A stretch of DNA of 64,000 nt from Botryllus schlosseri (Eukaryota). The translations under genes were made by a program, and so were the position numbers. Where the stretch lies: assembly GCA_051294905.1 (NCBI GenBank), contig CM119371.1:24430001-24494000 (forward strand), read 5' to 3'. Under the pieces are notes generated by a model, which worked only from the letters and a program-made list of their open reading frames with translations, was not told where the DNA came from and searched no databases. Shown one piece after another: positions 1,735 to 41,906 of this stretch (positions within the stretch are counted from its first letter, which is position 1; every line of letters starts with the position of its first letter).

Positions 1735-1902
1735 CTTTCCAAACTGTCGATATGGGATGGTACGATGACATCAGAAATTTACTGTGACGTTGCGAATATT
1801 ACTAGTATGACGGGATGTCGAACGCTATTTTTGGGAGACTGCGATTTGACGGTAGAGAAGTTGAGATGTTTCGCGACAACCGGGAAAGAAAATCAGATGT
1901 CG
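1735..1902 (+). CDS. LRR exon A, copy 1 (internal coding exon of an NLR-like LRR gene)
   Basis: ttattcag|CTT...TCG|gttagt; 168 nt, phase 0/0, open frame LSKLSIWDGTMTSEIYCDVANITSMTGCRTLFLGDCDLTVEKLRCFATTGKENQMS. Two ~28-aa repeats with LxxLxI and xxLxLxxCxL motifs. Confidence 0.85.
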
Positions 1903-2162
1903 GTTAGTTGTGAAATATGTATGAATTGCAGTAATATGAATATTTCTCTTTCCGATATCAAGACAGGAAGATTGGTCTTAGCAATAATAAGGTGATTGCG
2001 TCTCAAGCGTCGTCAAATAAATGCGGAAAATCGTAACCCTCGTCAAGTCACTATGTAATGTATATTATTATTAGGGATGGTATAGACGTGAGGTTCACTC
2101 TCGCGTTCTGTGTGTGAACCTCAGATATTTGGAGGTTCACGTTCACAAACGAAGCTAGTTAG

Positions 2163-3114
2163 TAGGGATGGTGTGAACCTCCAAAAGGTTCAGGTTCGTG
2201 TGAACGCGAACTTTTTTGAAAAGTTCTGTGTGAACGCGAACGTGAACCTCATGACGTCACGGGACGTCATATTGCTCATTACAATCCTACATTCAAGTGA
2301 AGTGATATATAGCGACGATTCGGGCCACATAATCCACAATGCTGAAGTACATACTGACTTTCTAAACGTCGCCAAATGCATCAACTGCAGCAATGAAATG
2401 ATGTAATAATACCATAAAATCAATATCTTCCGTCGCGTCACCAGCAATTTCGACGAGGACTTGCAAGGGAATATAAGGTTACGCATAAAGGGTATAGGCC
2501 AGACTGGTCAATGCATTCGGCGTCTGAGTGTTGCTACGTTGATATTCAGCAGAGTGTAATCGGTGTTTACGCCATTGACAAGTTATACAGCAGTAGCCAA
2601 CACCCCAATCGCACCGATTTGGTTTTTATGATACAATAAACATATGAAATCGAGATGGAACCCGTACGCTTGCTAGATTATTTACATTAGACAACGATAT
2701 CAATTTCATTCATTGGTTGAATAAGCATCATTCGCTGACTACCGACATGTAGCGTATTTCGCTCTTAATGTTGTGTGATTGCGGGTCAAGCTCACTGCAG
2801 AGAGTCACTAAATATTCAGAAACAGTAAGGTGGATATTTCGAGCAAACTTTTGTAACTAAGCAGATACAATTTTTGAGATTATGAAGGAGCATGCTCGTT
2901 TAGTGTTGATTTTTGATGCTGCCAGCGCCATGCATAGAGTTTTGTATTGCAATTAATTTCAACCAAAGATGTCATCATGACGTGGAAATCGTAATATGCG
3001 AAAAAGGTTCACAGTGCAGAAACTACCAAGGCTCGTTGGGTGAACATGAACCTCTAAATTTCCGAGGTTCACACACAGAACGCGAACGTGAACCTCACGT
3101 TCACACCATCCCTA
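2163..3114. mobile_element. ~950-bp non-autonomous hAT-type MITE (copies also at 7813-10787, 15482-16433, 21118-22069, 26766-27717)
   Basis: TIR TAGGGATGGTGTGAAC...GTTCACACCATCCCTA, subterminal GTGAAC repeats, 8-bp TSD ctagttag/gtagttag. The empty site (gaagctagttaggttt) is visible in the A' intron near 30580. Confidence 0.85.
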
Positions 3115-4004
3115 GTAGTTAGGTTCTGCACTGCGAACATTTTTCATGTGCTACAATTTTCGCGTCACCAGAACGTGTCTTTGATTGGGAATCTCTGCTC
3201 CTCAACACCGGACCACTCTCTGCGATGCGCTGGCAGCATTAAAAGAAACTCAGCAGTAATCGAATATGCACCTTTCAAATTTCATAAAAATCCTTGAAAG
3301 TTTGCTCGGAATATTCAGCTGCCTGTTCGTCAATATTTCTCCGCTGGGAGCTCAGCCAACAATTGAACAATAGGGAGGACAAAACACATCACATGTAGGA
3401 AGTCAGCGAATTGTGTTTTATCAGCCAATGCATAGATAATTATTGTGAAAATTATATCATGCGTACGGGAGCCATATTGATTTGAAATCCTTATTGAAAA
3501 CCCGATTGGGGTGTTGGTTAATGTATAGCTTGTTTTCGATACAATATCTGGCGCAAGTATATAAACCGGTGTTTCACTATTAACAAAACACCTGTCCGGT
3601 GGAAGTGGTACCTCGTTGAAATTGTTGCAAAGCAACAGAAGTTATTGATTTTGCCGGATTATTATCACACGTGACTGTTTGAATTCATTGAGTGACGTTT
3701 CGGATATCAGCATATACTTCAGGATTGTAACAAGGTGACCGAGTCGTCTTTAGTTATCGTATACTTTACCGACACGTATGGTTAGAATTGAAAATTTGAC
3801 GTCACGTGACCACATTGGCTCACGTCCGCGTTCAAACAGATCCATTCAAAATGGTTCGAGTTCACACGATGCAGACTCAAAATATGATAAAATGATAACT
3901 CATGTTTCCCTTTTTTTCTCTCGAAAAAAACTAAATCATACCCAATTTAATGTAAGTGACTTCTATAAAGCAATCGGCTATTGTCATAAATTTTTGTTTT
4001 ACAG

Positions 4005-4172
4005 CTCTCAGATCTGGAAATACGTGATGTCAAAATGCCAGCAGAAAGTTACCGCGAAATTCCAATTACACTCAAATCCGTTAAATGCAAAAATGTAATA
4101 TTCACTAAATGCGAATTGACGAGAATGAAGATCTCTGAATTCAAAAATGGATGTAAAGACAACCATGTATCG
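4005..4172 (+). CDS. LRR exon B, copy 1
   Basis: ttttacag|CTC...TCG|gtaagg; 168 nt, phase 0/0, LSDLEIRDVKMPAESYREIPITLKSVKCKNVIFTKCELTRMKISEFKNGCKDNHVS. Same length and register as exon A. Confidence 0.85.
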
Positions 4173-7384: not shown

Positions 7385-7552
7385 CTTTCCAAACTGTCGA
7401 TATGGGATGGTACGATGACATCAGAAATTTACTGTGACGTTGCGAATATTACTAGTATGACGGGATGTCGAACGCTATTTTTGGGAGACTGCGATTTGAC
7501 GGTAGAGAAGTTGAGATGTTTCGCGACAACCGGGAAAGAAAATCAGATGTCG
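7385..7552 (+). CDS. LRR exon A, copy 2
   Basis: Same peptide and splice sites as exon A copy 1. Confidence 0.85.
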
Positions 7553-8187
7553 GTTAGTTGTGAAATATGTATGAATTGCAGTAATATGAATATTTCTCTT
7601 TCCGATATCAAGACAGGAAGATTGGTCTTAGCAATAATAAGGTGATTGCGTCTCAAGCGTCGTCAAATAAATGCGGAAAATCGTAACCCTCGTCAAGTCA
7701 CTATGTAATGTATATTATTATTAGGGATGGTATAGACGTGAGGTTCACTCTCGCGTTCTGTGTGTGAACCTCAGATATTTGGAGGTTCACGTTCACAAAC
7801 GAAGCTAGTTAGTAGGGATGGTGTGAACCTCCAAAAGGTTCAGGTTCGTGTGAACGCGAACTTTTTTGAAAAGTTCTGTGTGAACGCGAACGTGAACCTC
7901 ATGACGTCACGGGACGTCATATTGCTCATTACAATCCTACATTCAAGTGAAGTGATATATAGCGACGATTCGGGCCACATAATCCACAATGCTGAAGTAC
8001 ATACTGACTTTCTAAACGTCGCCAAATGCATCAACTGCAGCAATGAAATGATATAATAATACCATAAAATCAATATCTTCCGTCGCTTCACCAGCAATTT
8101 CGACGAGGACTTGCAAGGGAATATAAGGTTACGCATAAAGGGTATAGGCCAGACTGGTCAATGCATTCGGCGTCTGAGTGTTGCTAC

Positions 8188-10202
8188 CAGGGCTGTGGAG
8201 TCGGTAAATTTTACCACCGACTCCGGCTCCGACTCCGACTCCACACATTTTCAAAATACCGACTCCGACTCCGACTCCGACTCCGACTCCCGACTCCGAC
8301 TCCGACTCCAGCATTATTACCAATTTACCTCGAAAATTATATGCTACATTGTCGGTTGAATGACTATCATACAACCATTAAACATATGTAAACATATGAT
8401 TAACTGTGGCATGCTGAATTGTTTCATTGTGGCACAGCTCGAATTATCCACTATGCAATTAACATGAAATAAAGATTTGCTAAATATCCTTCCTCATTCA
8501 AGTTTTTATAACATGGACTCTCTAACATCCTGAAATGTATGAATCATTCAAATATGGCAGATATCCAATCCTGTATAATAAAAATGTAGATAAAAAATCC
8601 AAGTGTAGCTCTTGTGTATGACCTAGCAACTAATAAGGAAATTGAACTTACTAATTTTGTCATTACACACTATCCTGATTACAAGCACAAACACTCTTAC
8701 TACTAGTAATAGACATCGGTCATAAATGGAATTTAGTTAAGTAGTCAAAGACCATAGCCTATGTCTAGTCTACATGTACTTAATCAAGTATTCAAGGATT
8801 GGGACTTGCAGTCTTTCTTAATCATTTGTTCGACCCAAACAGCTAAGCTACACTACAAATATTTTCAATTTTGTCAAATGAGAAGCATCGTTTGGTCATA
8901 TTTACATATTTTTACAAATTTACAAAACCAGCCGATGCATTTTCTCTGTCACAGTATCATGGTATAATTCCAAAAATTGCATCAATTTTGACTGCATCGC
9001 GAAAACGCATCTTGCGGTTTTCTTCCCCTCTGCAACTGAGTTGTAATTTGCAAGTAATGTCTTTTATCTATATCAGGTGTGGGCAACTTTTTCGGCGAAA
9101 GGGACACCTGAGATTTACGAACCATTGCGCGGGCAACGGGAATGTTGGTAACCTTTTTTCAGTCGTCGATAGGAGCGAACCGAATTATGAAACATTGCAA
9201 ACAAGACTTATATTACTACGCTCTAAAATTGATAACATTATGACATCCAACTGTGCAGTGCGCAATGAGGCCCTGGTCGCGCGAAGCGCGAAATTTTTTT
9301 GGAAGATAACGACTGAATTAGGCTATAGCTAGCTATATCAATAAATATGTCGCTAACATACATTGGGGGTCACATCTGTATACCACTGGGCTCATTTTGC
9401 AAGGACAGGATTATTCAACGTTAAGACATAGCAAAATCGACGGTATCAGTGAACATGCCTCTATCATTTTGTGCAAATGTTTTGTCGACGATCTCGCTGC
9501 GAGTGCACAAGCGAAGCCGTATCTCCTAATTGCGAATATAGTTAGACTCAATTCTGTGAAGAATATGTATTTATAATTTTCAAAAGGGGGCTCAAATACT
9601 GAATGCAAGAAATCTAGTGACAATGAATCATGCGAAGTACCGAGAAAAATTTCAAGTCAAATAAATCTGCTATGAAATATTCTACTTCATGGTCATATAC
9701 GAAGATCTGGGATAAATGTGGCTGACTGCTGTCAGAGCTGTTGTTTTAGTCATCATCAAATTTCGCGGTCATGCTAACCAAATTTTAGTTGGCCTTGCAA
9801 TTGTACCTGGTGTCATAATTAATTTCGAGAATTACCTCGCAGGCCACACCTAACCTTCTCGTCTGCCAAATTTGGCCTGCGTGCCACGGGCTGGCCGCAC
9901 CTGATTTGTATGGTTAATAATAACAGTGATTGGTGGTACATAAAAATTATATTGAAAATTCTTTGAAAGCAAATGTTTTCATGATAGAGAAGTTGGAGTC
10001 GGAGTCGGAGTCGAAATCATAGTCATTCTCACAAACTCCGACTCCGACTCCAGTCAGTATTTTCCCACCGACTCCGACTCCGACTCCGACTCCCGCTATT
10101 ATAGTTTTCACGACTCCGACTCCGACGCCGACTCCATCAAGCGAAAATTACCCCGACTCCGACTACGACTCCACCGACTCCGACTCCGACTCCACAGCCC
10201 TG
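8188..10202. mobile_element. 2015-bp non-autonomous hAT element present only in unit 2
   Basis: TIR CAGGGCTGTGGAGTCGG...CCGACTCCACAGCCCTG, perfect 8-bp TSD gttgctac (8180-8187, 10203-10210), (CCGACT)n subterminal arrays. The other four units show the empty site. Confidence 0.95.
9074..9903. mobile_element. Older hAT-type MITE embedded within the 8188-10202 element
   Basis: Ends CAGGTGTGGGCAAC...GGCTGGCCGCACCTG, degenerate 8-bp flanks atctatat/atttgtat. Related internal sequence occurs at 50853-51558 and 57.0-57.4 kb. Confidence 0.6.
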
Positions 10203-11677
10203 GTTGCTACGTTGATATTCAGCAGAGTGTAATCGGTGTTTACGCCATTGACAAGTTATACAGCAGTAGCCAACACCCCAATCGCACCGATTTGGTTTTT
10301 ATGATACAATAAACATATGAAATCGAGATGGAACCCGTACGCTTGCAAGATTATTTACATTAGACAACGATATCAATTTCATTCATTGGTTGAATAAGCA
10401 TCATTCGCTGACTACCGACATGTAGCGTATTTCGCTCTTAATGTTGTGTGATTGCGGGTCAAGCTCACTGCAGAGAGTCACTAAATATTCAGAAACAGTA
10501 AGGTGGATATTTCGAGCAAACTTTTGTAACTAAGCAGATACAATTTTTGAGATTATGAAGGAGCATGCTCGTTTAGTGTTGATTTTTGATGCTGCCAGCG
10601 CCATGCATAGAGTTTTGTATTGCAATTAATTTCAACCAAAGATGTCATCATGACGTGGAAATCGTAATATGCGAAAAAGGTTCACAGTGCAGAAACTACC
10701 AAGGCTCGTTGGGTGAACATGAACCTCTAAATTTCCGAGGTTCACACACAGAACGCGAACGTGAACCTCACGTTCACACCATCCCTAGTAGTTAGGTTCT
10801 GCACTGCGAACATTTTTCATGTGCTACAATTTTCGCGTCACCAGAACATGTCTTTGATTGGGAATCTCTGCTCCTCAACACCGGACCACTCTCTGCGATG
10901 CGCTGGCAGCATTAAAAGAAACTCAGCAGTAATCGAATATGCACCTTTCAAATTTCATAAAAATCCTTGAAAGTTTGCTCGGAATATTCAGCTGCCTGTT
11001 CGTCAATATTTCTCCGCTGGGAGCTCAGCCAACAATTGAACAATAGGGAGGACAAAACACATCACATGTAGGAAGTCAGCGAATTGTGTTTTATCAGCCA
11101 ATGCATAGATAATTATTGTGAAAATTATATCATGCGTACGGGAGCCATATTGATTTGAAATCCGTATTGAAAACCCGATTGGGGTGTTGGTTAATGTATA
11201 GCTTGTTTTCGATACAATATCTGGCGCAAGTATATAAACCGGTGTTTCACTATTAACAAAACACCTGTCCGGTGGAAGTGGTACCTCGTTGAAATTGTTG
11301 CAAAGCAACAGAAGTTATTGATTTTGCCGGATTATTATCACATGTGACTGTTTGAATTCATTGAGTGACGTTTCGGATATCAGCATATACTTCAGGATTG
11401 TAACAAGGTGACCGAGTCGTCTTTAGTTATCGTATACTTTACCGACACGTATGGTTAGAATTGAAAATTTGACGTCACGTGACCACATTGGCTCACGTCC
11501 GCGTTCAAACAGATCCATTCAAAATGGTTCGAGTTCACACGATGCAGACTCAAAATATGATAAAATGATAACTCATGTTTCCCTTTTTTTCTCTCGAAAA
11601 AAACTAAATCATACCCAATTTAATGTAAGTGACTTCTATAAAGCAATCGGCTATTGTCATAAATTTTTGTTTTACAG

Positions 11678-11845
11678 CTCTCAGATCTGGAAATACGTGA
11701 TGTCAAAATGCCAGCAGAAAGTTACCGCGAAATTCCAATTACACTCAAATCCGTTAAATGCAAAAATGTAATATTCACTAAATGCGAATTGACGAGAATG
11801 AAGATCTCTGAATTCAAAAATGGATGCAAAGACAACCATGTATCG
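11678..11845 (+). CDS. LRR exon B, copy 2
   Basis: tttacag|CTC...TCG|gtaagt; same peptide as copy 1. Confidence 0.85.
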
Positions 11846-14800
11846 GTAAGTTCTACTAATGTACCGGGACGTGCATCGTGTAGATTGGTATTTGTTGTTG
11901 TTGTTTGTGGTATTCATGGTTTTTATCGACTAAGATCGTCATTTAGACCAAGCCGATATTCCCTATTTTTTCATTCCGAAACTGCCGACTTGTCGCATGG
12001 CCCAATTCTTGGCTTGTTAACATACCACATACGCGGATGAGATGACCAAGGTCCAAGAATAATCTAGAGAGGGAATGCGCTTCAGGGCATTCCAGAGCGA
12101 ACTGTAGATTTCGAGATAAAATCTAACCTTTGTACCGTGTACCAATATTAATCATAACGGCTCACTGTATTCTGGCTACAGCTTACCTTCCATTTCACCA
12201 AAGTGAACTTTACGTCCATTTTTGACCAGCTTGCCGAGCGCTAAATTCGATAAAACGGCCATTGATTGGAAGCTGCTGCCATACTAATTACGAAAATATG
12301 AAATTTATTCTGCTCGTGGACCTGGTACCCCCAAAATCAGCCACGAAATTTACATTTAGATCGAGATTGGAATTGTGATGCAACAGTGCTGTCTGGCTCT
12401 TTGTTCTTACCTTCACTTTCGTTTTTCCACACATAATTGTTGCGTCAGAATGCCAAATCCGATCTCAATGCAAATTTCGAGGCAGATTTTGGGAGGTTCC
12501 ATGTCTATGAGCACATTAAAATTTATATTTTTATAATCAGTACAACAATAGCTCTTCATTGATACCCGTTTCCTGGAATTTAGCGGTTGGGAAGCAGGTC
12601 AAATATGACAGTAAAGTAGCCTTTGGTCATATCGAAAGTATGGAGTAACCCGAATGCAGTGAGCTATTGAGTTTCGCTGTGTCCACGCCGTATAGGACAC
12701 TATTGTCAAACTGTCTGATAGTTGACATGCGTATATTTCATTACGAGAAGCAAACGTACCAGAGTTCTCCCATTCGTCAGACGCCTGCGATTTTAAGCTG
12801 GTTTCTTCATGGAACGCATCATTTTCATCGGCAGTTCGCATTTATACGGCGGGGGTCACATTGACATGGTACCATTATAATAAATACGAAAAAATTGTAA
12901 GAAATTTTTAGGTTTATTGAAAAACCCCAATGATATTTCAACGAATTCTTAAATTCAAATAGCATATTGACGCTAGCCAACAACCGCTAGTTTAATTATG
13001 TGTAGAAGACCGCATAATTATGGTTTTACGTCTGAATGCGCATCAATCAATCCATATTAGTTGGTTGCTAGTATCAACGATTCTTCTCAATCTCAATTAC
13101 TCAGCATAGGCACAGCAAGCAAACTCAAATTCCTTTTTGTTTTGTTCTGTAAATACACTATCCTGATGTGGATCTAGTGAGTTTAATCTCATCATAAATG
13201 AAATCAAAGTTCTGGATATTTTGTTATGTTTGTGATTTATTTACCAATTTGACCAGTGACATGAAAAATACAGATTGAAATAAGGATAGGTTATAACTTA
13301 ACTTCATAATAAAAATTGAAGATCAAGATAAAAGCTTCTCATTTCATGCTATCTGTGTAAAACGCCGATGAAATTATTATGGTTAGCTAATAGGGAGTAC
13401 CGGCATTCAATGTTGTATGCTATTGAAAGAGGCATTCCATTTGGTATGTGGAACGCGCCAATGAAATTTGTATGTTTGGCTAGGGAGATCGGCATTCACT
13501 GTCATATGCTAGGGTTACCATATTCCTGTGGTACAAATTCCTGACACTCAAGCCAACTAGCTTTACGAAATAAAGTGTGTCATTTTCCAAATCGGTATGG
13601 TACAATCCGACTCACTTGTACGAATTACAAGCTAAATAATACAATATGTTAACACACGTTGACAACACAATACTTCAGTTTTCGATTTTAATGCAGTAAG
13701 GCCCTTCTTAATCGGCGCTGGAATTGGAATCGTCAAGAAATAACAATTCATTCGCGGCTCTGAACAATCTTCCTGCCCCGCGCATCAATATGCACCCACA
13801 GTAGCTATTCATAACATTGCCACTCGCGATTTCGGTGCGTACAATGGGCCGTTGCGAAAAGTAGAATGGTCCGGAGTTCACTGGAAATGGATATGTACCG
13901 TTTACCATATGCATTATGCGTCCATATAGCTCACTGCGGCTAGGCCCTACAATGCGGCCTTAGGTTACATATACAATCGAAATGCGGCCATGATCAGCAA
14001 AAATGTTGCCCACCTCTGTATTAGATGATGTGCTAGTTTTGACATAACGATAAATGCAAGGGGGGGGGGGCAGGTGGCGCGATTGTATGACCATCGCCAT
14101 AGGGGCCGAAGGTCATAAAAGGTTGAGAACCGCTGTGATAGACAAAAGTGCGAAACAGTAGATGCCAATTTCTAGGAATGCAATTTCACTAAATAGTTCG
14201 TTTGTCATTATCTTAAAAATATGTCGAAATACCGAAATTCCTGCGTTGGCCACACAAAGTCATGTCGTCGCGAAAATAAGTTGAGCCCTGCCTTTCGTAT
14301 AGAATATGCAAGTACAGAATGGCGAAAATTTGATAATCACTAAGACTGTCCATTGGAGAGACCTGGCGAAATCAACGAATATTTTGAATGGCAACAGATA
14401 AATGTTCCTAGGGAATGTATTTCGTACTCAAAATCTCCACATTTGTCAGAAATGTGCTGGATAATACGGCAATTTTTCAATAATCACTTCGCGGATTGGA
14501 TGAAATCGTCAGGCGGGCCGTATGTTTGAACCCACTGCTGTACATCGTCGACTCCAATACTACTTTAATATTAGCGAGACGTACAAATTAACAGCATCTC
14601 AGCAAATAAGAATTGATCATATCTACGACAGCGTGTGCAAAATAAGGCAGCGTAATAATTACATAAACAGTGATTACTAACAGCACACTGTGTCATTGCG
14701 TTGATACAAAAGGGTGCTGGATTTCGGTCAAGTGATAGTTTGACATCGTGTTGTTCCAATTGCTGTACATCTTCTCGACTATGTCCATGATTTGGAAGGA

Positions 14801-30378: not shown

Positions 30379-31028
30379 GTTAGTTGTAAAATATGAATGA
30401 ATTGCGATTATATAAATATTTCTCTTTCCGATATCAAGACAGGAAGATTGGTCTTAGGAATAATAAGGTGATGGCATCACTACCGTTGTCGAATAAATGT
30501 GGAATAATCGTAGACGTGAGGTGCACCTTCGCTTTCTGTGTGTGAGCCTCAGAAATTTGGTGGTTCACGTTCTCAAACGAAGCTAGTTAGGTTTCGCACT
30601 GCAAACCCTTTTCATGTAAATTTCTGTAAATTTTACAACGAAATACCGGTCGCAGCCAATACCTGCGTGTAGCTTGTGAATTTTACATTTTGATATGGAA
30701 TATTAACTTAATTTATCTGCAAATTTAAGTTACCAGAATTCCTACGCAAGATTACTGCCCGTTACTCGCTACTGCCGTTTACCAGGATACTGGCAAAATT
30801 GATTAGCTTCTATACACTTAAGCAGCCAATGTATACGTCGAATTGAATGTCCCTGTAATATTATTCTCGTTTCGATTTGACCTGATTCAACCTCGCTCGC
30901 GAGACAAGGGAAGGTCATACCAGACTTTGACAACTAGATTATTCTAGTTGTCTAATTTGGCTAAATTAGAGCAAAATGTCAGTAATCTAATTCTAATCTA
31001 ATTTGTGAAATGTTTCCATGCTCTATTA

Positions 31029-31900
31029 CAGAGGTGGGCAAACTTTTGAGCTCGCGGGCCGCATTCAACATCTGAATCCATTCGCGGGCCGCACTATATC
31101 AAATTGGGATCATAAACCAAAACGAAATATTGCTGGTATTTGATTATATAGTGAGGACACGGAGATAATAATATGCTTATTTGAAACAAACCAAACATTG
31201 CTATGATGATATCGTACACGTGCCAGAAACAATGGCGAGATTTCATAGGCCGGTCGACCTCAATAACCAATTTGGCAAAACTATAGAGATGAAAGTCTGT
31301 TGTCCCGATTCTTAGAACAGGATTGAAATTTAAATCTGTGAGCAATGATCTGTTCATATATTTACTAATTCCGCTTTAGGTTCAGTTCCAGGACCAACAA
31401 TGCTGACAGCATCATAACCATGTTAGCTTCAAACACGCTTCTACTATATGTGCAGATTTCGCGCCCCCTTATCGTCATATCACAAAACGCAACCAGGATG
31501 CTATAGCAAACCTAACGGATACTTTGGTGGCATGGGAGGTTACGACAATTGATGAGAGATTTTTAAATATGAAATTCATACTGAATACAGAGCAATAATT
31601 ATGAATTGAAAGTAAATCGCGCGAAGCGCGAAAAAAATTTTCAGTTGAGCTCAGCTTCGCGATCCCTTCAGATGCTTTCATGACCCCAAGGGGCACGCGT
31701 CCTACAGGTTGAGACCCACTGCCTTAGAATTATCATGGTGGAATATACTAAGAAAAAGTTTAATCAAGTCCCTGCATTAATTCGATTTTTAGTACGCATT
31801 TTATCAATATTTTTAATAATTTTCTTTAGACTCTCGCGGGCCGCACAGAACGGTGTTGCGGGCCGCATGCGGCCCGCGGGCCGTAGTTTGCCCACCCCTG
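31029..31900. mobile_element. Non-autonomous hAT MITE
   Basis: TIR CAGAGGTGGGCAAAC...GTTTGCCCACCCCTG, perfect 8-bp TSD ctctatta, subterminal GCGGGCCGC motifs. Confidence 0.9.
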
Positions 31901-34900
31901 CTCTATTATAATTATATTCTAATTTTTCAAATGCTTATATGCTCTAATTTTACTTCTAATTATCGAATATATTGTTTTCCTGAAAACGCCTCAAATTGGT
32001 CCGCGGACTCAGGAGCGCGTTAACAATAATACCACTCTCGGGAAATCCATTGTTAAGCCGCCATCGCTTTACATAGATCGTACCGCACAGTCATAGTGGT
32101 CATTGTCATGTAGGAGAACTGTACATATACATGAACACTTTTCGTGGTGGCCGCGAACCTTAAAAATGCAATATCGAGACAAATAGGCCACACAGTTGAG
32201 AAACCACCAGAGGTGGTCAAAGTAGTCAAGAAAGCTACTCAAGTAGAAGTAGAAGTAGTGACGAAAAAAATCCACTCAGGTACGAGGAGAAGTATTTCTT
32301 CCATAAGCAACCTAAAACTACTTGAAGAAAAAGTAGAATTAACTGACTTTAAATCTACTCAAGTAAGTAAGTAGTTGTGAAAACGATGGTACTTTGTTCG
32401 CATGGATTGTCAAAAGATGCAAATTGAGCTATGCGAAAGGTGCCGAGCTTAATTCAAATTGATACATACCAGGAGGTATTCAATTTTCGACAGCATAAGC
32501 AAAAGCATTCTTCAGCTTCATGAGATGAAAATGATAGTATTGATATGGAAATCAGATACTAATCCTCTGTTTAATCGAACACCACGTTTTAGAAAATATG
32601 ATGGTATCGCGCAATCTCCCATATTCTAAGGCCCGTAGTTTAGTCGAAGAGCATTACGGCGAAGTTGTATCGGATACGGTGTAAACACTTTGCGCGTTTA
32701 GTAAAAAAGATAGTGGATCGTAAAAATGCCATATTGTGTAGCTTTATTTCCGGAAATTAAAGGCATTACTACACTTGCTTTTATACTTCAACATGTATGT
32801 TACCAGACAAAAGAACTGATATTAATTAGAGCTCAAAGTATATGATACTGGGGATTGAAAAAGCGGAAAATGTATTTTATGTCTTTAGTTCAGAAAGTTT
32901 CAAAGGTGGTATGTTAAACAGCTCTGAAACTAAAAAACGTCTGAGTTCACATTTCCAGATTAGGAAACGCCATGGACTGCTAGATCAATGGTTCTCAATC
33001 TTTTTCATTTCGCGGAACGGAAAAATTTCAAAAAATATTCGGCGGACCGATGGACTTTCAAAAATTGAAATCAACTCAAAACGTGCAGTACGCAACTGTT
33101 TTATGCAAGTATATGGTGCTGCAGTGGTTCTCAACCGGGGGTTCGCGGACCCCTAGGGGTCCGCGAAGCAATTTCAGGGGGTCCGCGAGACTTCCAAATT
33201 TTTAAAATGGTTGATAACGTAATTTTTATTTTATTTATTAATTTGAGAAAGCATGAGGCAGTTTCGCACAACAACTGCTATAACCTCATGACTCATATCA
33301 TCATAAACTATCGTAGTGTGGAAATTCATTTTCATTGCCAATTTTCCAATAACAAGGGGGACTTCGTTATGTCTTCTCGATTTGAAGTTGTCAGTCTCAT
33401 CAAATTAGTGAACAGTCGTTTGAAATAAAAATTTCCGAAGTATTTACCCAATTTGTACCAATGCAGGGATTAAAACCTCGCCACGAAATCCATTTTATCC
33501 TGCGATAGACATAACCACTATTTGAACAGCTTCTTGGAGGTACAGAACTTCAATATAAAATTGAATAGTATATTCATATTGAAAGGAACCCGAATACTGT
33601 CGGCTGAATGTCGTCATAAATCGAACGATGCTGCTTTTGAAGCTCGACTATCAGATTTGACGCATTCTTATTGCGGATGTCCTATCTACAAAGCTGTCGT
33701 AGGTTCACCTGAATCATTCAGAGGTTCGCACCCCCCCTACTATGAATACAATGAGCCACACGAAAACACCAGACAACAGCTATACCTGGCCATCCACAAA
33801 ATCAGCGCCGATCGTCAGCCTAGCTGTCAAAAACGGTGGTCATGGGCCCCAAAAGGCGATAAAAGAAATTTTTAGGGGCATTGCGCCCGACCCCAAAGTT
33901 GGTTGCTTGTTTTCACCAGTACTTGTTCAATCTACTGAGTGAAGGCAGAGAGTTTTCTATAATTCATGACTGAATCGGTAAATAAATTTTTAATTGCATA
34001 TATATTGCTGAAAATTTTAATACTCTCAGAATAATCAGATTTTCCGGTAGAGTTGATTGAGATGTCGTGTTGGAAAATTTAGGGCACGTAGTTGATAATA
34101 ATTAAACATATTCGGCTGGGCCTGTTGAAATAATTACTTCACTGCATGTTAATATTTCGTCATCTACTGTCTGTTATATAGGATCTAGATATTGAGGTCA
34201 TCCACGCGTACTAAACCAAAGTGCGCACACGATTCCAAATTGATATTTCTTCACTGGCAAATAATTTTTCTCTTTGTTTTGGCATTTGTGCTGTGGGTTA
34301 CAGATTGCCAGAACAGTGAGATTAGGCGCCAGCCATTGTGGAGCCTTTATCAAAGTTTTTGGTCAGTAAGGGCAGTCTTTTTTGGCCGAGGTTATCCCAC
34401 TGGTAAGTAAATTTTATTTAAGTATGTTGTTCGCATACTTTTTGGATTCCTATGCTAGCTTAAACTTCATTACGTGATGGCGCGTCGTGGTGGGGCATTT
34501 CTATAATTCGTGAGTATTTCTTGGGGAAAAGACGCATAATTATCAAGACTTTCAAAACATTCAGTGACACTAAACCGCGTTAGTGGTAGTGTGAATGCAC
34601 CTCACAAATTAAAAAAAAAATCTTGAAAGTTTGCTCGGAATATTCAGCTGTGCGTTTGTCAACATTTCTCCGCTGCGAGCTTTTCCAATAATTAAACAAT
34701 AGAGAGAACGAAACACATTACATGTAAGAGGTCAATGCATTGTATTTTGTCAACCAATGCATCGATGCAGGGCCGTAACTGCCGCACCCCACGCCCCACG
34801 CCCCACCCCCATATGGGAGGCCAAGACTCATTTTTCCTTTGTTACGAATTGCTTTTTCGTTCCTGCCAACGGGTATGCACCCGGACATGTTGAATTAATA

Positions 34901-35555
34901 TTGAGGGGTTCTACCTTTTCAAACACACCTCACTCACCTCTACCGGTGAATCAGATTACGTGAGCAGAGGGAGATGATAAAAAGTGATAGCAATATATAT
35001 GCAATTCCCGATGATATTGCACGATTGAGTCATGAGTTATCGGAAAATTCTCGGGCTTCGCGAGTTAAGCCGAAAAAAGCTGACTCATTAAACGGACACC
35101 GAATGTAGATGATAAGTAGCGGTAAACAGCATAAAGCCGATGGGGGTTCGATTTATCACTCAATACCTTGCTTTTAAGATAATATCTGGCGCAAGTATGT
35201 AAACCGGTTTTCCCTCTTACGAATACTCCTGTCCGGCCAAGGAGATTCCTCGTTGAAATTGTGGCAAAGTGACGAAATTTTGTTGGATTATTATCAGTTT
35301 TGATTGTTCCTGTGGATACAATTAGTGAAGTTTAAAATATCAGCATATACATCACCATTGTGGCATAAGGTGTCCCGAGTAGTCGCTAGTTATATACTTC
35401 ACGGAAACGTACACTGAAAAAAAATTTACCTCGATTTACCGCGATATGTCTGGAACCAGGGTGGCCAGCCACTTGGCAGTAATATAACATTACCTTACAC
35501 TCGTCCGGTAATCTAACTTTACACGCCAGACTGTAATGTTATAGTCACCTTTGGT

Positions 35556-37057
35556 CAGGGCTGTGGAGTCGGTAAATTTTATCACCGACTCCGGCTCCGA
35601 CTCCGACTCCACACATTTTCAATATACCGACTCCGATTCCGATTCCGACTCCGACTCCTGAGTCTTTAAACGTACCCACTCCAACTCCTGGGTCTTTAAA
35701 CGTACCGACTCCGACTCCAGCATTATTACTACAATTTACTTACATGCCACATTGTCAGTTAAATCACTATCATACAACCATTAAACATATGCAAACATGT
35801 GATTAACTGTGGCATGCTAGATTGTTTCATTGTGGCACAGCTCGAATCATCCATTATGCAATTAACTTGAAAGGCTAAAGATCCTTTCTTTTTCAAGTTT
35901 TTATAACTTGGACTCTCTAATATATTGAAATTTATGAATCATTCAAATAAAGCAGATGTCCGATACTGTATAATAAAAATGTAGATAAAAAATCCAAGTG
36001 TAGCTCTTGTGTATGATTCAGCAACTAATAAAGAGTTTGAACTTACTAATTTTGTCATTGCACACTATCCTGATTACAAGCACACACACTCTTACTACTA
36101 ATAGGCATTGGTCATAAATGGAATTTAGTTAAGTAGTCAAAGACCATAGCCTATGTTTAGTCTACATGTACTTAATCAAGTATTCAAGAATTGGGACTTG
36201 CAGTCTTTCCTAATCATTTGTTCGACCCAAACAGCTAAGCTACACTACAAATATTTGTAATTTTGTCAAGTGGGAAGCATCGTTTGGTCATAATTACATC
36301 ATTTTTACAATTTGACAAAACCAGACGATGCATTTGCTCTGTCACAGTATCATGGTATAATTCCAAAAATTGCATCAATTTTGACAGCATCGCGAAAACC
36401 CATGTTGGACGACACGTTATCTCCTAATTGCGAAAATAGTTAGACTCAATTCTATGATTAATAGGTATTTATCATTTTCAGAAGGTGGTTCAAATACTGA
36501 ATGCAAGAAATCTAGTGACAATGAATCATGCGAAGTACCGAGAAAAATTTCAAGTCAAATAAATCTGCTATGAAATATTCTACATTATGGTCATATACAA
36601 AGATCTGGGATAAATGTGGCTGGCCCCTGGATACGCTAATGCGTCAGAACTGTTGTTTTAGTCATCATCAAATTTCGCGGTCATGCTAATCAAATTTTCG
36701 TTGGCGTTGCAATTGTACCTGATGTCATAAATAATTTCGAGAATTACCTCGCAGGCCACACCTAACCTTCTCGTGTGCCAAATTTGGCCTGCGTGCCACG
36801 GGCTGGCCGCACCTGATCTGTATGGTCATTAATAACAGTGATTGTTGGCACATAAAAATTTTATTAAAAATTCTTTGAAAGCAAATGTTTTCATGATAGA
36901 GAAGTTGGAGTCGGAGTCGAAGTCACGTTCATTCTCACAAACTGCGACTCCAAATCCAGTCAGTATTTTCCCACTGACTCCCCCTCAAGCTATTATAGTT
37001 TTCACGACTCCGAATCCATCAAGCGAAAACTACCCAGACTCCGACTCCACAGCCCTG
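35556..37057. mobile_element. Second, internally deleted and more diverged copy of the 8188-10202 hAT family
   Basis: Same TIR (CAGGGCTGTGGAGTCGG), TSD cctttggt/cctctggt, collinear internal sequence with a deletion. Confidence 0.9.
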
Positions 37058-37960
37058 CCTCTGGTATTTTCAATCTACATTTCCTTCTGTACATTTACGA
37101 CCGAGACTGTAATTTTATGGCCTTACCTACCTATACCTACCTACCTACCTATCTACCTACAACTCTACCCGCGGTCCTTGTAAATCAGGATTACATGCCA
37201 GCTTGTAAATTCACGTAGCCTACATCCACTCCTATCCCAAAGCAACGCGATTCCAAAATACCGCAAAAGTTTCTTCACGCTCTCAAGACGATATTGGGAC
37301 CACTGTATATTCATTCGTGATTCACGATGAAAAAGTATTGCTACTGGAGGTCTAATTCTTGTTTAGGAGGCATGCAAATACAGCACGGGTGGTCCCAAGA
37401 AAATGTGAATTAATTCCACTGCCCGATAAACTTCCAATTAATTCTTTTTCTCGTCTTCATTCCTCCTGTGTGACTAGTATCTTGCAGTTCCACTAAAAAT
37501 AATTCATGCGTAAGTCGCTATACTAACCTAAGTTGATAACTCAGACATGATTTATACAGACTACGACAAATAGGCTAACAAAAATAGAACAATTTTGAAG
37601 TACCGGTACTGGTGCATTGTGAGTTGATGACTCCTCATTTGACATGATATGGCAGAGATTCATGAATTAAATGATCAATGCATTGAGAGAAAAGGTGCGT
37701 CATTTGATGCGGCATGTGAGCCAAACCTATCGGGCAGTGGATGAAAACATATCTAAGCTATGACCCGATAAATGTCAATACCAAGCAAACAGTTTTAACT
37801 ACTCCGCGGCAGAGTATGTGGTGTCGCAGGTCATTATACATGTCGACTAATATCCCAAAATAGAACAGAGAATGGGGCGACTGAAATATTTAAATCATGA
37901 AACCAAAGCCATCCGGGTCGTGTGCACAGTCGTAGATATTCACGGTAACTAATACTATAC

Positions 37961-39477
37961 CAGAGGTCTCAAACTCAAATGTGCTCGCGGGCCATTTCCT
38001 CGTTTTTGATGACGCCGTGGGCTGCATCAACAATCTTCGGGATATTCATTGTATAATTCCAAGTAGGCCTTATTTGACGGGACCTTGCAGACAGGCATTC
38101 CACAAACATCGTGGAAATGTAATTTATTATTGCATTATTCACGCGGACACGGAACAAAAATCACATTTTCAAATATTTGAAGAAAATTGCTTTTGCGCCG
38201 GGCATAATTTTACAAATTAATGAGTTATAGACATCATACGACAGGATGCATCATGACATCGTAAAACTGTCGGGTTATAATATTGCAGCTAGTGGACCTT
38301 TGACGTGCCACAAGTTTATGTAGAATATTTCGAAATCTACTGGAGATTGATTTGATATCAGAGCATTTGAGCGCTATAGCCTAATCCTGGTTTTGATAAA
38401 GTCGTGATAAGTATAGGCCATTGTTAAAGTCAAATTAAATCAGCGTTAGATTTTGCCCTCGATTATTATCAATAACAACTTTAATATAATCATTTTTGAG
38501 CCATAGCAATATCATTGATTCTTGACCTTTTTAGCGATTGTACCCCTTGTGCTTCCAATGAGATTTCTCCTAGCCACTGTCCATTTTCAACACAATTTCT
38601 GGTGGTACCTATATTAAAATCAGAAAGCCCATTCACATAAAATCGCTCGTAGCGCGAAGACTATTTTCCAGTTGAATAAATTGGCCAAGAAAATATTCCA
38701 CAGCATATAGGCCTAATTCCACAATGCATCTCCCACACCCTGATGTGGTGCTTTCGTACCCCGATGGGGTCTACGGACCCTGGTTAAAAACCCCAGCAAT
38801 AGAAATGTCCAATCGGCGAATAATTTATTGGTGTTACTAGTTACAGCTGTAGAGCGTACTACTATCCTAATCGCCACCGAGAACAAACAACACCCAACAT
38901 GTAACCAACTATAAGTCACGGGTGTCATAGAATGCCAATGGTTGCCATACTGACCTGATTAGATAGCTATATACATACCATACGCAACGCACTCTAAGAC
39001 CTTTTGATATATTACTACTCCCCATGACAGTTGCGTAGATTGTTGCGACCGTAGGATTAACAAGTCACCGTTCCGACTCGCAAGTCCCTCTCTGATTTTA
39101 ACGTTAGACCCTACTCAACTCGAGTCATTTTTATTTAATCACCCAGTCAATCCGAAATCGAGTAATTTCACGGGAAGGTCGCCCTAAACCAAATCACAAT
39201 TTTCAGTCACGAATTATCAACGGGTCATGTTTTATCGCCATGAACTAGAAATGTGACGTATTAGCTGATCTTCTACCGTATGATAGCTTTTAAAAGTGAT
39301 TTGAGTGAAGTTTGTTGAGATTTCAGTGATGTTTATAGTAGTTTCAGGGTGAACATCAAGTTCTTATATCTAAAAATGATATATAGCACTTGAATGTATT
39401 GTTGAATACTTGAAATTCCGAAATGCCGTCGCGGGCCGCACAAAATGCTCTCGCGGGCCGCGTGTTTGAGAGCTCTG
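37961..39477. mobile_element. Non-autonomous hAT element
   Basis: TIR CAGAGGTCTCAAAC...GTTTGAGAGCTCTG, perfect 8-bp TSD tactatac. Confidence 0.9.
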
Positions 39478-39945
39478 TACTATACAGTACTGTACCTTTT
39501 ACGATGCGCATCCCATTCATCAGTCCTGGGAATCTTCAACGAAAGTCTCAACTTTCTTCAATCACAAGTCACAAGCTTCGCACTGTCAGCCTTTGCATGC
39601 TCAAAGCTCAATATTAATGACCGACCACGACCAGTCGGCTCGACACGCAGACGACTTTGAAATAAGTGATATTCATCGGCTCACATATGCCACCAATACT
39701 ATTTACTGTCCACGTTATAATGTTCAATCTATAGGTTGGTTTTTCCTACAGAAACATCTATCAACACATGTAGTCCTTTTCTTTCGCATCTAATTTCGTC
39801 AATATTGATATTTATTCCTCCATGTGTGGTTTCCTACTTACTTACCTAACCGGACGCTGCCTGTGATGCCACAGCTGCACGTAGGTTGTTTACTATGAAT
39901 CTCAGAAAAACCCGCAACGCGTAACCCAAGGTAATCTATTATAGG

Positions 39946-41022
39946 TAGTGGTGCCACTCCTAATGTTTTATCGCTAGATCAAGTGTTTTGTCGGTCGTCC
40001 TAGTGTTCTAGTGTTTTTTTCGCACAATTTTGCTAATCTAGTGTTTTTCTGCAATTCTGCGAACAAGGAATATTCCAACATCAGACTACTAAATTATACG
40101 CTAAATTTATCGCTAATAAGGCGATTTGGTGTCTCTGGCTGTTTTAGTTTTCAACAATTCTATGTGGTGGTGCAGTAAGAAGCAATTATTACGTAACAGG
40201 GTGCGCTGTGAATCCGTATTCATGAGTGAATGTCACGGACAAAATAAAGAGCGATTTCGCTCTAATGCTCTGTCGTTTTTTGTTGAACTCACTCTGCAGA
40301 TTCGGGAAAGATTTTCATTTGCCGAGGACAGCATACTTTCTTACTTGAGGGTATTGAATCCGTTAACAGCCTTGTCAACACAAAGAAAAATAAAATGAAT
40401 CGTTCCTGTAGCTGTGCAATTTCTCTATGTGATATTATTTGATCAACTTAATGATTTGTCGGAAGAATGGGCTGCGTTGGCTAATTCGCAAAGTGAGCCG
40501 GAGGTTATCAGTCAATGCCATCCAACAGAATTTTGGAAAAAATTGAAATATGTGCACAATGGATTCGGTGAATCAAAATTCCCTTTGCTGGGGAAGCTCA
40601 TGACGAATCTCTTGGCATTGCCACATTCCGCAGCATGCATGGAAATTAAGTATGCTGCACATGGACACCTCCCCATTGTTTGAAAATGTACGGTAGTGAG
40701 CAAGTTGCCACACATAAGATACTTACGTTTGATCGATGGTGTACAATCGAAAGATAATTTTTATGATGCCGTACAATTCGAAAGCGACAATATTTGATTT
40801 TTTCCTACTCTGATGAACTCGTTTCATCAATTTTCGTTGAATAATCATGCAGTATATCATACATATGTATCGAATTGATGTGTGGAACACTTCTTATCAA
40901 TGGGTTTGTACCTTGGTCATCATGATTACTTGGAAACGGCAAATTTTTCCTGCAATTTTCTAATCTAGTGTTTTTCACGACACAATCTTGTGTTTTTCCA
41001 AGAACCTAGAGTGGCAACACTC
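39946..41022 (+). mobile_element. Deleted hAT element with transposase C-terminal remnant
   Basis: TIR-like AGTGGTGCCACTC...GAGTGGCAACACT. Broken ORFs at 40126-40683 include FWKKL...KFPLLGKLMTNLLALPHSAACME, matching the hAT dimerisation-domain pattern. No clear TSD. Confidence 0.75.
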
Positions 41023-41738
41023 ACCAGCCCTATCTGTGTCAACAAATCTAACCGCCGAGACCCACCATGTAGTCATAGCCTTATAATATGATGGTGTAGC
41101 CACATCGTCAGCTGTTTCTTGCACCCAACTATGCACTATACCGAAATTGGTACTTGGGTCAACCAGTTCCGTGTGACCTAGCCCGAACGAGGTTAAATCA
41201 GGTCAAATCGCAACGAGAATGATATCACAGTGACATGCACTTCCACGTATTAATTGGCTGCTGGGGCTTGGCAGCTAATCAATTTTGCCGATAGCTTGGT
41301 GAAATGCCGTAGCGAGTAACTGTCAGTAACCTTGCGAAGAAAATCTGGTAACTTGACTTAGCAGTTAAATTAATATAATATTACATATCGAAATGTAGAA
41401 TGACAAGCTATACACGCTGCTATTGGCTGCGGCCGGTAATTCTTTGTAAAATTTACAGAAATTTCTTTGTAAATCTACCTGATTTTTTGTGTATGGGGTT
41501 AGTATTGAAAATATAATGTCACGAGACGTTATTGGCTCACGTCCGCGTTCAAACAGAACCTTTCAAAATTGTTCGTGTTCCCACGAACCAGAGCCTTTCA
41601 AGAATTGACTCGATCACTAATATCAATGATAATTCGTGTTTACTTTCTTTTCTTGCGTAAGAAAGTAAATCATCCCCAATCTAATGTGAATGACTTCTGT
41701 AGAGCAATCGGCTATTGTCAAGAATTGTTGTTTTACAG

Positions 41739-41906
41739 CTCTCCAATCTGGTAATACGTGATGCCAAAATGCCACCGGAAAGTTACCGCGAAATCGCCAT
41801 TACACTCAAATCCGTCGATTGCGAAACGATAATGTTCGGTAACTGCGAACTGACCAGAATGAAACTCTCTGAATTCTACAATGGATGCAAAGACAACCAT
41901 CTATCG
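41739..41906 (+). CDS. Diverged LRR exon B'
   Basis: ttttacag|CTC...TCG|gtaggc; LSNLVIRDAKMPPESYREIAITLKSVDCETIMFGNCELTRMKLSEFYNGCKDNHLS. 15/56 residues differ from B; frame and splice sites are intact. Confidence 0.8.

Follow-up and report, generated by a model that had tools for sequence, protein, structure and literature searches.

The window analysed here, a 64,000-nt stretch of DNA, contains a tandem array of five near-identical units, each carrying two 168-nt exons, and we consider it likely that the array is genuine and that it has expanded, very recently and in frame, the sensor region of a single Death-NACHT-LRR gene in an ascidian-like animal. In kind, the finding is ordinary: exon-modular LRRs are a familiar property of NLR sensors, and the lengthening of repeat proteins by tandem duplication of exons is textbook knowledge. 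Its added value lies in offering a datable snapshot, in which successive rounds of duplication of one cassette are placed side by side in what is probably one gene.

The cassette array and its time markers

The array can be read directly from the assembled DNA. The block of high identity spans window positions -461 to 29764, or 4.99 periods once an insertion is removed, and is built of units of 5648-5650 bp, with unit 2 reaching 7669 bp owing to a 2015-bp insertion. Relative to unit 4, which served as the reference, identity is 99.4% for unit 1, 99.4-99.9% for unit 2, 99.6% for unit 3, and 98.9% for the truncated unit 5. The features of this region are listed below; the start of each exon A and exon B range is that of a 168-nt exon on the + strand, bounded by AG and GT.

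1..1734, + strand: entirely intronic tail of the older unit 0 (unit positions 3920-5648), which matches the young units at 99.5% identity
1735..7384, + strand: unit 1, 5650 bp; exon A 1735-1902, exon B 4005-4172
7385..15053, + strand: unit 2, 7669 bp; exon A 7385-7552, exon B 11678-11845; holds the transposon insertion
15054..20689, + strand: unit 3, 5636 bp; exon A 15054-15221, exon B 17312-17479 (Ser15Gly in B)
20690..26337, + strand: unit 4, 5648 bp, the reference; exon A 20690-20857, exon B 22960-23127 (Ser15Gly in B)
26338..29764, + strand: unit 5, truncated at unit position 3427; exon A 26338-26505, exon B 28608-28775 (Lys10Arg in B)
29880..42316, + strand: older A'-B' cassette, 12 kb, with unit remnants at 74-82% identity
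30211..30378, + strand: exon A', an older paralogue of A (90.5% nucleotide identity, dN/dS 0.38 vs A)
41739..41906, + strand: exon B', an older paralogue of B (83% nucleotide identity, dN/dS 0.45 vs B)
2162..3115, unstranded: dispersed repeat of ~950 bp (unit positions 428-1381)
8188..10202, unstranded: non-autonomous, hAT-like DNA transposon, 2015 bp, in unit 2 only

The sequence-only reading of the window had claimed two 168-nt exons per unit, in the order A-B five times and then A'-B', and all 12 of these exons are borne out, each being 168 nt long, with AG before it, GT after it, and no stop codon within. Their acceptors have pyrimidine-rich tracts, their donors read G/gtaagg, G/gttagt, or G/gtaggc, and frame 0 is the sole open frame in all four exon types, with one to five stops in each of the other frames. 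The pattern of AG, 168 open nucleotides, and GT is itself common in the window (22 instances on the + strand, 12 of them these exons, and five on the - strand), so the reality of the exons rests on their mutual homology and on their match to a family that has at least 95 members in the genome. The peptides of the five A exons are identical and those of the five B exons are at least 96% identical, with one or two residues changed, while A' retains 86% peptide identity to A, and B' 73% to B. Whole-exon dN/dS values range from 0.12 to 0.69; wherever dS exceeds 0, older copies compared pairwise all give values below 1. The exons are separated by introns of 2.1-3.2 kb (4.1 kb in the transposon-bearing unit 2), and, as had been proposed, the gain, loss, or skipping of any one of them would preserve the frame, which follows directly from their length of 168 nt and their 0/0 phase.

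Mobile elements place the duplications in time. The 2015-bp element is bounded by terminal inverted repeats (CAGGGCTGTGGAGTCGG...) and flanked by an 8-bp target-site duplication, GTTGCTAC (8180-8187 and 10203-10210), whose length leads us to class it as hAT-like; a second copy, 86% identical, lies at 35556-37046. Another such element, with the duplication CATGGTAC, marks the exact point in unit 0 at which identity rises from 94% to 99.5%. The ~950-bp repeat, with related copies at 42728-43252, 43870-44752, and 46612-47008, occupies the same place in all five young units and is absent from unit 0, and hence its insertion predates the amplification. The youngest round of duplication is bracketed, having occurred after one transposon insertion and before another. 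Further, the variants shared among units form a mosaic, grouping units 1 and 2 against units 3 and 4 in some stretches and units 4 and 5 against units 1-3 in others, with the unit 0 tail grouping with units 3 and 4. Together, the two transposon insertions and this mosaic speak for genuine copies that continue to recombine.

One might object that the unit count reflects misassembly, with a shorter array or a pair of haplotypes expanded or stitched together, given an identity of 98.9-99.9% over 5.65 kb and a 30-kb array that exceeds typical accurate long reads. We regard this as very improbable. The units are distinguishable by 91 variant events with structured sharing, the transposon and its target-site duplication are confined to one unit, and the edge unit is the more diverged, as a true array predicts. 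The 3' 1.5 kb of unit 5 has ~35 private differences. Near-identical internal repeats are, moreover, present in relatives from Styela clava.

The sequence-only reading held that the array probably continues upstream. Instead, the near-identical block stops at -461, and only older copies of the cassette lie beyond it. These, and others downstream, are as follows.

Window -19619, -16926, -13609, -5941, -5016, and -3742: six upstream LRR-type exons, 168 nt, AG/GT
113359, 115891, 137872, and 220295: four intact downstream LRR-type exons, 168 nt, AG/GT
217749-217895: downstream B-type exon, its 5' part lost to stop codons

The upstream exons at -5016 (A-type, 93% identical to A') and -3742 (B-type, 98% identical to B) belong to unit 0, and unit sequence persists in the A'-B' cassette as remnants at 29880-30590, 34595-35411, and 41497-42316, with inserted repeats between them. 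The cassettes fall into divergence classes of ~30% (old), 10-20% (intermediate, including A'-B'), 6-9% (unit 0), and 0.1-1.1% (the young five). With 12 exons in the window and 10 outside it, the predicted gene has 22 intact LRR-type exons, all 168 nt long and of phase 0/0.

We infer that the basic module is the cassette of A and B, which would have been duplicated repeatedly along the gene. The likeliest mechanism would be unequal crossing-over and gene conversion between adjacent paralogous cassettes, processes that could both add units and keep them alike. If every exon is spliced in, the young block would contribute 10 exons, 560 aa, and 20 LRRs, a gain of 448 aa over a single cassette, and the predicted gene as a whole would place 44 LRRs between its NACHT module and its C-terminal cap exon.

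Gene context from the Death exon to the cap exon

The sequence-only reading had looked to the upstream sequence for a NACHT exon, and one is present on the same strand, preceded by a Death exon. Both open reading frames (ORFs), together with the family-specific exon that would terminate the gene, are listed here.

L009:2525-2890, + strand: Death exon ORF, Pfam Death 31.3 bits (cut-off 22.6), 47 kb upstream of the window
L009:7569-8798, + strand: NACHT exon ORF, 410 aa without a stop, Pfam NACHT 47.6 bits (cut-off 26.7), 42 kb upstream of the window
223822-224001: cap (terminal) exon, family-specific, with an AG acceptor and a stop at its end, 182 kb downstream

When aligned with an S. clava relative, the NACHT exon exhibits the Walker A motif GEAGAGKST and the Walker B motif LLTIDGLD, and it is 33% identical over 365 aa to an S. 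clava Death-NACHT-repeat protein (E 2e-59); the Death exon weakly matches the Death region of the relative P0003 (E 1e-4). The claim of a two-exon, phase-0 cassette amplified in tandem within the repeat region of an NLR-type gene is supported.

The Death exon, NACHT exon, array, and cap exon probably belong to one Death-NACHT-LRR gene of ~271 kb, as judged from the arrangement of sequence on the chromosome, where eight NACHT and eight cap exons strictly alternate along 23.45-24.96 Mb of C1 on the + strand. Such a gene model requires introns of 71 and 80 kb, in which transposon ORFs abound (reverse transcriptase/endonuclease, integrase, and a polB-like ORF). The alternative, that the LRR exons in the window are separate from the upstream NACHT gene and form an LRR-only gene or a set of orphan cassettes, could draw on the 24 kb that lie between the last helical-domain exon found and the first LRR exon, on the lack of a linking transcript among reads that were mapped on window positions 26200-46199 only, and on the existence of S. 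clava relatives that have repeats and no NACHT, P0004 (445 aa) and P0002 (1383 aa). We nonetheless give it a low probability. A paralogue with an 88%-identical NACHT is collinear with this locus in its conserved blocks, which comprise, in order, the NACHT exon, two helical-domain exons, and the first LRR exons; in the paralogue these blocks lie within 10 kb, and the extra 17 kb here are an insertion. Further, neither the ORFs of at least 90 aa from window position -41 kb to +64 kb nor those of at least 100 aa from that point on to +124 kb gave another Death or NACHT match. Our placement of the NACHT and LRR exons in a single gene draws on this collinearity and on the 8:8 alternation.

Fold of the repeat and evidence from RNA

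That the repeat is an LRR, as first proposed, held at the level of structure and failed at the level of sequence models. Pfam LRR models had no match to the four exon peptides at E of 10 or below, a sequence-profile search of PDB returned nothing below E 0.1 (best E 0.14, with designed LRR proteins at E 0.3-1), and word-based database searches found no relatives. A profile of the exons matched only 39 proteins at E of 1e-3 or below among 1.84 billion, and the six best long matches that were checked by name (P0001-P0004, P0007, and P0012) are all from S. clava. P0001-P0004, with 8-31 repeat stretches each, are likewise without Pfam LRR matches, while the remoter matches P0013, P0037, and P0021 carry LRR_1 or LRR_6. 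The fold is approached by proxy. Specifically, P0004, which hhalign pairs with the exon profile (probability 94.8%, 35% identity), has an AlphaFold model (pLDDT 92.7) that forms a regular solenoid of 28-residue strand-helix repeats, with 16 strand-helix units in a horseshoe, and Foldseek places it nearest to NLRP2/5, ribonuclease inhibitor, NLRP3, and NLRP9 (E 1.8e-10 to 1e-6, TM 0.48-0.59). Exon A alone is predicted to fold as two strand-helix units (E3-6, H13-26, E30-33, H40-49; pLDDT 82.4). On this basis, we predict that the repeat belongs to the ribonuclease-inhibitor class of LRRs, the long solenoid being that of the S. clava relative, and that each exon encodes two such LRRs (strand-helix, strand-helix). 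As a descriptive observation, the columns that vary among the exons (3, 5, 7, 9, and 10) are located within the first strand and beyond it.

Four bulk RNA-seq runs with the same species label, out of 18 RNA runs listed, were mapped on window positions 26200-46199 (~5.0 billion letters, 6-13% of each run). The 15 joints listed, out of 90, include no predicted junction in this sample of four of 18 runs at 6-13% each. Across the same partial runs, depth was 0 at 29535-30201 and in the next bin, 30202-30868, to which A' belongs, and did not exceed 0.22, or about one read or none, in the bin of the collapsed B exons. The reads in the bins of A5 and B' show fixed differences at positions in repeats that lie outside the exons.

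These observations bear on two other accounts of the array. In the first, the array is real but the gene is silent or decaying, and the duplications are a neutral by-product of unequal crossing-over, at a locus rich in repeats and transposons, with no effect on a protein. Essentially no exon reads in all four runs, a locus of such length with transposon-rich introns, the downstream B-type exon broken at its 5' end, and a stop in two of the eight NACHT exons of the cluster (neither being the NACHT exon of this gene) are all in line with decay. Against this, the RNA sample is a small fraction of each run, from unspecified tissue; the 22 other LRR-type exons all retain an open frame and AG/GT borders; the NACHT ORF is intact, with both Walker motifs; dN/dS is below 1 among the older copies; and the cap exon departs from six paralogues at three of 16 invariant sites, inside the leave-one-out range of 0-4 for the paralogues themselves. 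We consider this first account rather unlikely on balance.

In the second, which takes up the isoform idea of the sequence-only reading, the cassettes are used combinatorially, by cassette or mutually exclusive splicing, to produce isoforms that differ in length or content. Any subset of the symmetric exons would remain in frame, four isoforms are annotated for an S. clava relative, with one lacking the last repeats and ending in a different tail, and the skipping of one 171-bp LRR exon in human NLRP3 provides a precedent, as described in the available part of Hoss et al. 2019 (PMC6642158). Yet, the listed joints offer no example in the partial runs, and the near-identity of the A and B peptides means that a choice among them would alter little beyond length. 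This account strikes us as improbable, and we retain that of a recent expansion of the sensor region.

Comparison with known repeat-bearing receptors

The closest relatives are four uncharacterised S. clava proteins, XP_077976001.1 (LOC120336943, 1650 aa), XP_039248824.1 (2508 aa), XP_077976009.1 (1383 aa), and XP_039259544.1 (445 aa). As here, Pfam Death, NACHT, and NOD2_WH domains are followed by 8-31 units of a 56-aa double repeat, the NACHT exon is alike at the 33% identity given above, and there is a C-terminal cap, with a GW(D/E)ID motif in S. clava and an NWEID-type motif here. Many repeats match another repeat of their own protein at 85% identity or more (12 of 31 in P0001, 15 of 22 in P0002). 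These proteins are, however, unstudied gene predictions from another species, at only 30-35% identity, whereas the array here is younger, with peptides 98-100% identical, and is read at the DNA level, introns included. Because near-identical internal repeats occur in S. clava and the present locus captures the process in a snapshot, our results point to LRR cassettes that evolve in concert within a lineage-restricted and uncharacterised subfamily of tunicate NLRs whose repeats escape standard LRR models.

In brown algae, the exons of ROCO and NB-ARC receptor candidates reportedly each encode a single LRR. These candidate immune receptors (PMC11378527, as far as the available text goes) resemble the present gene in having LRR exons that act as in-frame modules and are duplicated and reshuffled, and differ in belonging to another protein family and another kingdom. 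Vertebrate NLRs such as NLRP3 have exon-modular LRR domains of the ribonuclease-inhibitor class; for NLRP3, the accessible part of PMC6642158 describes one exon encoding two LRRs of ~28 aa, with the frame kept and the exon border at a fixed place beside the beta strand; the predicted fold of the S. clava relative matches NLRP3, as well as NLRP2/5, NLRP9, and ribonuclease inhibitor. Still, the exons here are of 168 nt (56 aa) vs 171 nt (28 + 29 aa) in that source, their sequence is too divergent for Pfam LRR models, and the predicted repeats, 44 in all, are far more numerous. For NLRP3, the same portion describes no five-fold array of near-identical cassettes, and alternative splicing of LRR exons, documented there, was not seen here among the joints listed in four partial RNA runs.

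A further comparison is with the fungal NLRs of high internal conservation (HIC), namely het-d, het-e, and nwd of Podospora, as described in parts of Paoletti et al. 2007 (PMC1805685), Dyrka et al. 2014 (PMC4986451), and PMC12222747. According to these excerpts, they are NACHT-type receptors with nearly identical C-terminal repeats, and Dyrka et al. 2014 (PMC4986451) define high internal conservation, in the text available, as repeats more than 85% identical across at least 100 aa; in the young array, 560 aa lie above 85% (A identical, B at least 96%). The mosaic here suggests exchange between repeats, of which variation in repeat number is the expected consequence. In the same fungal excerpts, the repeats are WD, ANK, or TPR and lie side by side within a single exon, with polymorphism in number and positive selection both demonstrated, whereas the LRR-like repeats here are split by introns and duplicate as a 5.65-kb DNA unit that includes them. 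It is a tentative and, at present, unlikely proposal that the tunicate subfamily is an animal counterpart of these receptors, with intron-containing, two-exon LRR cassettes continually duplicated, exchanged, and lost by unequal crossing-over and with alleles that differ in LRR number and order between individuals. If so, the subfamily would constitute a fast-evolving repertoire of non-self sensors, conceivably for pathogen recognition or allorecognition in ascidians, and, should unit number vary among individuals, the locus would offer a simple system for studying how an animal innate receptor changes in length and specificity. The five-unit array would then be a snapshot of this turnover of cassettes.

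The cassette array and its probable Death-NACHT gene

Self-comparison of the window set the units of the tandem array at start-to-start spacings of 5650, 7669, 5636, and 5648 bp. Relative to U4, the reference among the young units U1 to U5, identity was 99.4% for U1, 99.4-99.9% for U2, 99.6% for U3, and 98.9% for the truncated U5. All 12 exons proposed by the sequence-only reading, namely the A and B exons of the 5.65-kb cassette and their older paralogues A' (30211) and B' (41739), sit where that reading placed them and proved to be 168 nt long and stop-free, with AG/GT borders in good splice-site contexts; only frame 0 is open in all four exon types. At the peptide level, the five A exons are identical and the B exons vary at 1-2 residues, while A' and B' retain 86% and 73% peptide identity to A and B, respectively. 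Because the bare pattern of AG, 168 open nt, and GT is common in the window (22 times on the plus strand, including the 12 array exons, and five times on the minus strand), the case for these exons rests on homology: they match one another and also a set of similar 168-nt exons, at least 95 in number, from other parts of the 495.5-Mb genome. Scans for Rfam families and for tRNAs found nothing in the window. A conserved block (45163-46145), which recurs behind the downstream B-type exon, was rejected as coding, given stops in every frame.

We examined the window (G000:C1:24430001-24494000 of the genome) together with 50 kb of upstream and 220 kb of downstream sequence. The upstream NACHT exon that the sequence-only reading had suggested looking for is present on the same strand, and it shares 33% identity over 365 aa with XP_077976001.1, a Death-NACHT-repeat protein of Styela clava.

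Features assigned to the array's gene outside the array (window coordinates, negative values upstream; L009 is a fetched upstream stretch)
-47475 to -47110 (L009:2525-2890), plus strand: Death-domain ORF, by Pfam
-42431 to -41202 (L009:7569-8798), plus strand: NACHT-domain ORF of 410 aa, by Pfam
about -40842 to -40640: exon resembling the helical region of relatives
within -39765 to -39313: exon resembling the helical region of relatives
-19619, -16926, -13609, -5941, -5016, -3742: intact upstream LRR-type exons, AG/GT, 168 nt each
113359, 115891, 137872, 220295: intact downstream LRR-type exons, AG/GT, 168 nt each
217749-217895: damaged LRR-type exon, 5' part lost
223822-224001: cap exon, AG acceptor

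Conserved blocks are collinear from NACHT to the first LRR exons in a comparison with a paralogue (NACHT 88% identical), and a 17-kb insertion with a polB-like ORF in it accounts for the 24-kb gap before the first LRR exon. Within this insertion lie long ORFs of 499 and 307 aa (L010:6694-9014, a second upstream stretch; window about -33306 to -30986, plus strand), the shorter with a weak Pfam match to DNA_pol_B_2 (E 3.8e-4); the pair may belong to a Polinton/Maverick-like element.

The family's genes end in a characteristic, stop-terminated cap exon of ~60 aa. None was detected from 50 kb upstream of the window to +124 kb, either with S. clava caps or with an HMM of six caps from the genome; the cap at 223822 was located by a whole-genome search with a single cap peptide and then in sequence farther downstream. 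We considered whether this cap is degenerate, but its differences at 3 of 16 invariant sites fall inside the 0-4 leave-one-out range of its paralogues and are thus no evidence of decay. The main argument for the gene's extent is that eight NACHT exons and eight cap exons alternate strictly on the plus strand of C1 between 23.45 and 24.96 Mb, which argues that each NACHT-cap pair is one gene. The array's gene, presumed to yield a single transcript, would then cover ~271 kb, contain 22 intact LRR-type exons with 44 repeats in all, and have introns as long as 80 kb.

Predicted LRR structure of the repeats

Sequence models did not recognize the repeats as LRRs. Specifically, Pfam gave no LRR match on four single-exon peptides and also missed the repeats in the closest relatives, and a PDB sequence-profile search with the exon profile returned nothing significant. 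Word-based searches among longer proteins, with the NACHT exon and the exon alignment as queries, found no homologues. The exon profile itself, run against 1.84 billion representatives, matched just 39 proteins at E<=1e-3. Looked up by name, the six best long matches (P0001-P0004, P0007, and P0012) are all from S. clava, P0001-P0004 having 8-31 repeat stretches each, and some weaker matches bear Pfam LRR_1 or LRR_6.

Predicted structure, in contrast, supports the LRR identity put forward by the sequence-only reading. The model of P0004, a 445-aa relative to which the exon profile aligns with 94.8% probability and 35% identity, has a pLDDT of 92.7 and 16 regular units, each a five-residue strand and a 13-14-residue helix, and its best matches among solved structures are NLRP2/5, ribonuclease inhibitor, NLRP3, and NLRP9. 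Exon A alone, modeled from a 13-sequence alignment, folds as strand-helix-strand-helix (pLDDT 82.4). In the exon alignment, the columns that never vary (L1, L4, I6, M11, Y16; C36, L38, T39, F46) fit the LxxLxLxxCxLT pattern of the ribonuclease-inhibitor class. By proxy from the P0004 and exon A models, we infer a long LRR solenoid in the array's gene. Predicted structure and gene context together lend good support to the proposal that a two-exon cassette expands the LRR region of an NLR in frame; that the receptor varies in length between alleles or isoforms is a hypothesis.

Age, exchange, and constraint among the units

The sequence-only reading had guessed that the array continues upstream, but the near-identical block stops at -461. 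It runs from there to 29764, or 4.99 periods without the U2 insertion, and window positions 1-1734 are the tail of an older unit 0, with A-type and B-type exons at -5016 and -3742. Against the young units, unit 0 shows 87-94% identity as far as unit position 3467 and 99.5% from there on, and the switch coincides with a 2.08-kb transposon marked by an 8-bp duplication (CATGGTAC) along with terminal inverted repeats. A 2015-bp element with inverted repeats occurs only in U2; its 8-bp duplication (GTTGCTAC) suggests the hAT superfamily. Since all five young units share a 950-bp dispersed repeat that unit 0 lacks, and the U2 element is confined to one unit, these insertions bracket the amplification in time.

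The units are separated by 91 variant events, shared among them as a mosaic: U1 and U2 stand against U3 and U4 in places, U4 and U5 against U1-U3 elsewhere, and the unit 0 tail groups with U3/U4. The edge unit U5 has ~35 private changes in its 3' part. The unit count itself is taken from the assembly and could in principle reflect assembler stutter, yet such an artifact is hard to reconcile with the mosaic sharing and the private changes of U5. In a true array, unequal crossing-over or gene conversion produces just such a mosaic with a diverged edge unit.

Among older paralogous exons, dN/dS lies between 0.12 and 0.69, never reaching 1 in a pair whose dS exceeds 0, a reading of selection limited to the older copies, as the young ones are too alike to be informative. 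A-type exons are better conserved than their flanks (A versus A', 90.5% identity; flanks, 82-84%).

Related exons and other repeats were seen elsewhere. On the minus strand of chromosome C7 (G000:C7:28566679-28598233), related LRR exons with identical scores are spaced by 6619, 6258, 6258, and 12252 bp, a pattern that probably marks a second young array, in a different gene. On C3 (G000:C3:1.76-2.09 Mb), more than 12 related LRR-type exon matches each have one in-frame TAG, seemingly at the same place, and may be recently amplified pseudo-exon or broken-cassette copies. A 3.2-kb segment at 57467-60703, including a 92-bp tandem repeat (59163-59397), recurs inverted at 71489-74725 (L014, beyond the window's 3' end), about 11 kb away and with 99.4% identity; the two are probably copies of a young transposable element. 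A further block occurs twice, 1539 bp apart (53017-53341 and 54556-54880), each copy comprising a 20-bp duplication and a 54-bp tandem repeat of ~3.9 copies.

Expression and comparison with known systems

No RNA run containing the unit was found among the sequencing runs listed. We mapped four bulk RNA-seq runs on window 26200-46199; they come from two studies and carry the same species label. Because this stretch contains A, B, A', and B' once each, reads from all young units collapse onto it; ~5.0 billion letters were read (1.0-1.5 billion, or 6-13%, per run). In these samples, depth was 0 in bins 29535-30201 and 30202-30868 (the second containing A') and at most 0.22 in the bin containing B, and reads in the bins of A5 (exon A of U5) and B' showed fixed differences, located at repeat positions and not within the exons. 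No predicted exon junction appeared among the best 15 of 90 joints. In these samples, then, the array's gene is silent or expressed very weakly; with 6-13% of each run read and tissues unstated, this lowers the case for function but leaves it standing.

Two other RNA signals were observed. First, thousands of reads (more than 6000 junction reads in run X13) support a minus-strand splice from 39496 to 37492 (CT..AC, i.e., GT..AG on that strand) joining segments 37290-37492 and 39496-39618. Because all carry the same fixed differences from the window, this RNA comes from a paralogous copy or copies elsewhere. Its loose ends at 39609/39618 resemble a template-switch oligo, which would mark 5' ends, and it has no ORF of at least 35 aa standing out as coding and no Rfam match. 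Second, depth reached about 500-1000x in three runs on a ~240-nt segment (44209-44452), where many reads align only partly, the loose-end consensus is like a tRNA T-arm, and the putative 5' end is 44452 (minus strand). ARAGORN and Rfam returned nothing on this segment, which is probably an expressed SINE-like dispersed repeat.

The closest relatives, unstudied S. clava gene models, have the same Death-NACHT-repeat architecture, and in two of them 12 of the 31 and 15 of the 22 repeat units have a partner at least 85% identical in the same protein, which makes near-identical internal cassettes a family trait. We found no description of such an array in the literature on tunicates or animal NLRs within our search, outside which most subscription journals lie. 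Vertebrate NLRP3-type LRR domains are built of frame-preserving exons with two repeats each, as here (Hoss et al. 2019, PMC6642158), although their exons measure 171 nt rather than 168. In evolutionary behavior, the array is similar to fungal NLRs whose internal repeats are highly conserved (PMC1805685, PMC4986451); those differ in having WD, ANK, or TPR repeats in a single exon and in that polymorphism and positive selection are proven there. The array is a new and unusually young case of an evolutionary process already known, in an uncharacterized tunicate NLR subfamily, and offers an entry point for tests of whether the LRR cassettes of an animal evolve in concert and vary in copy number.
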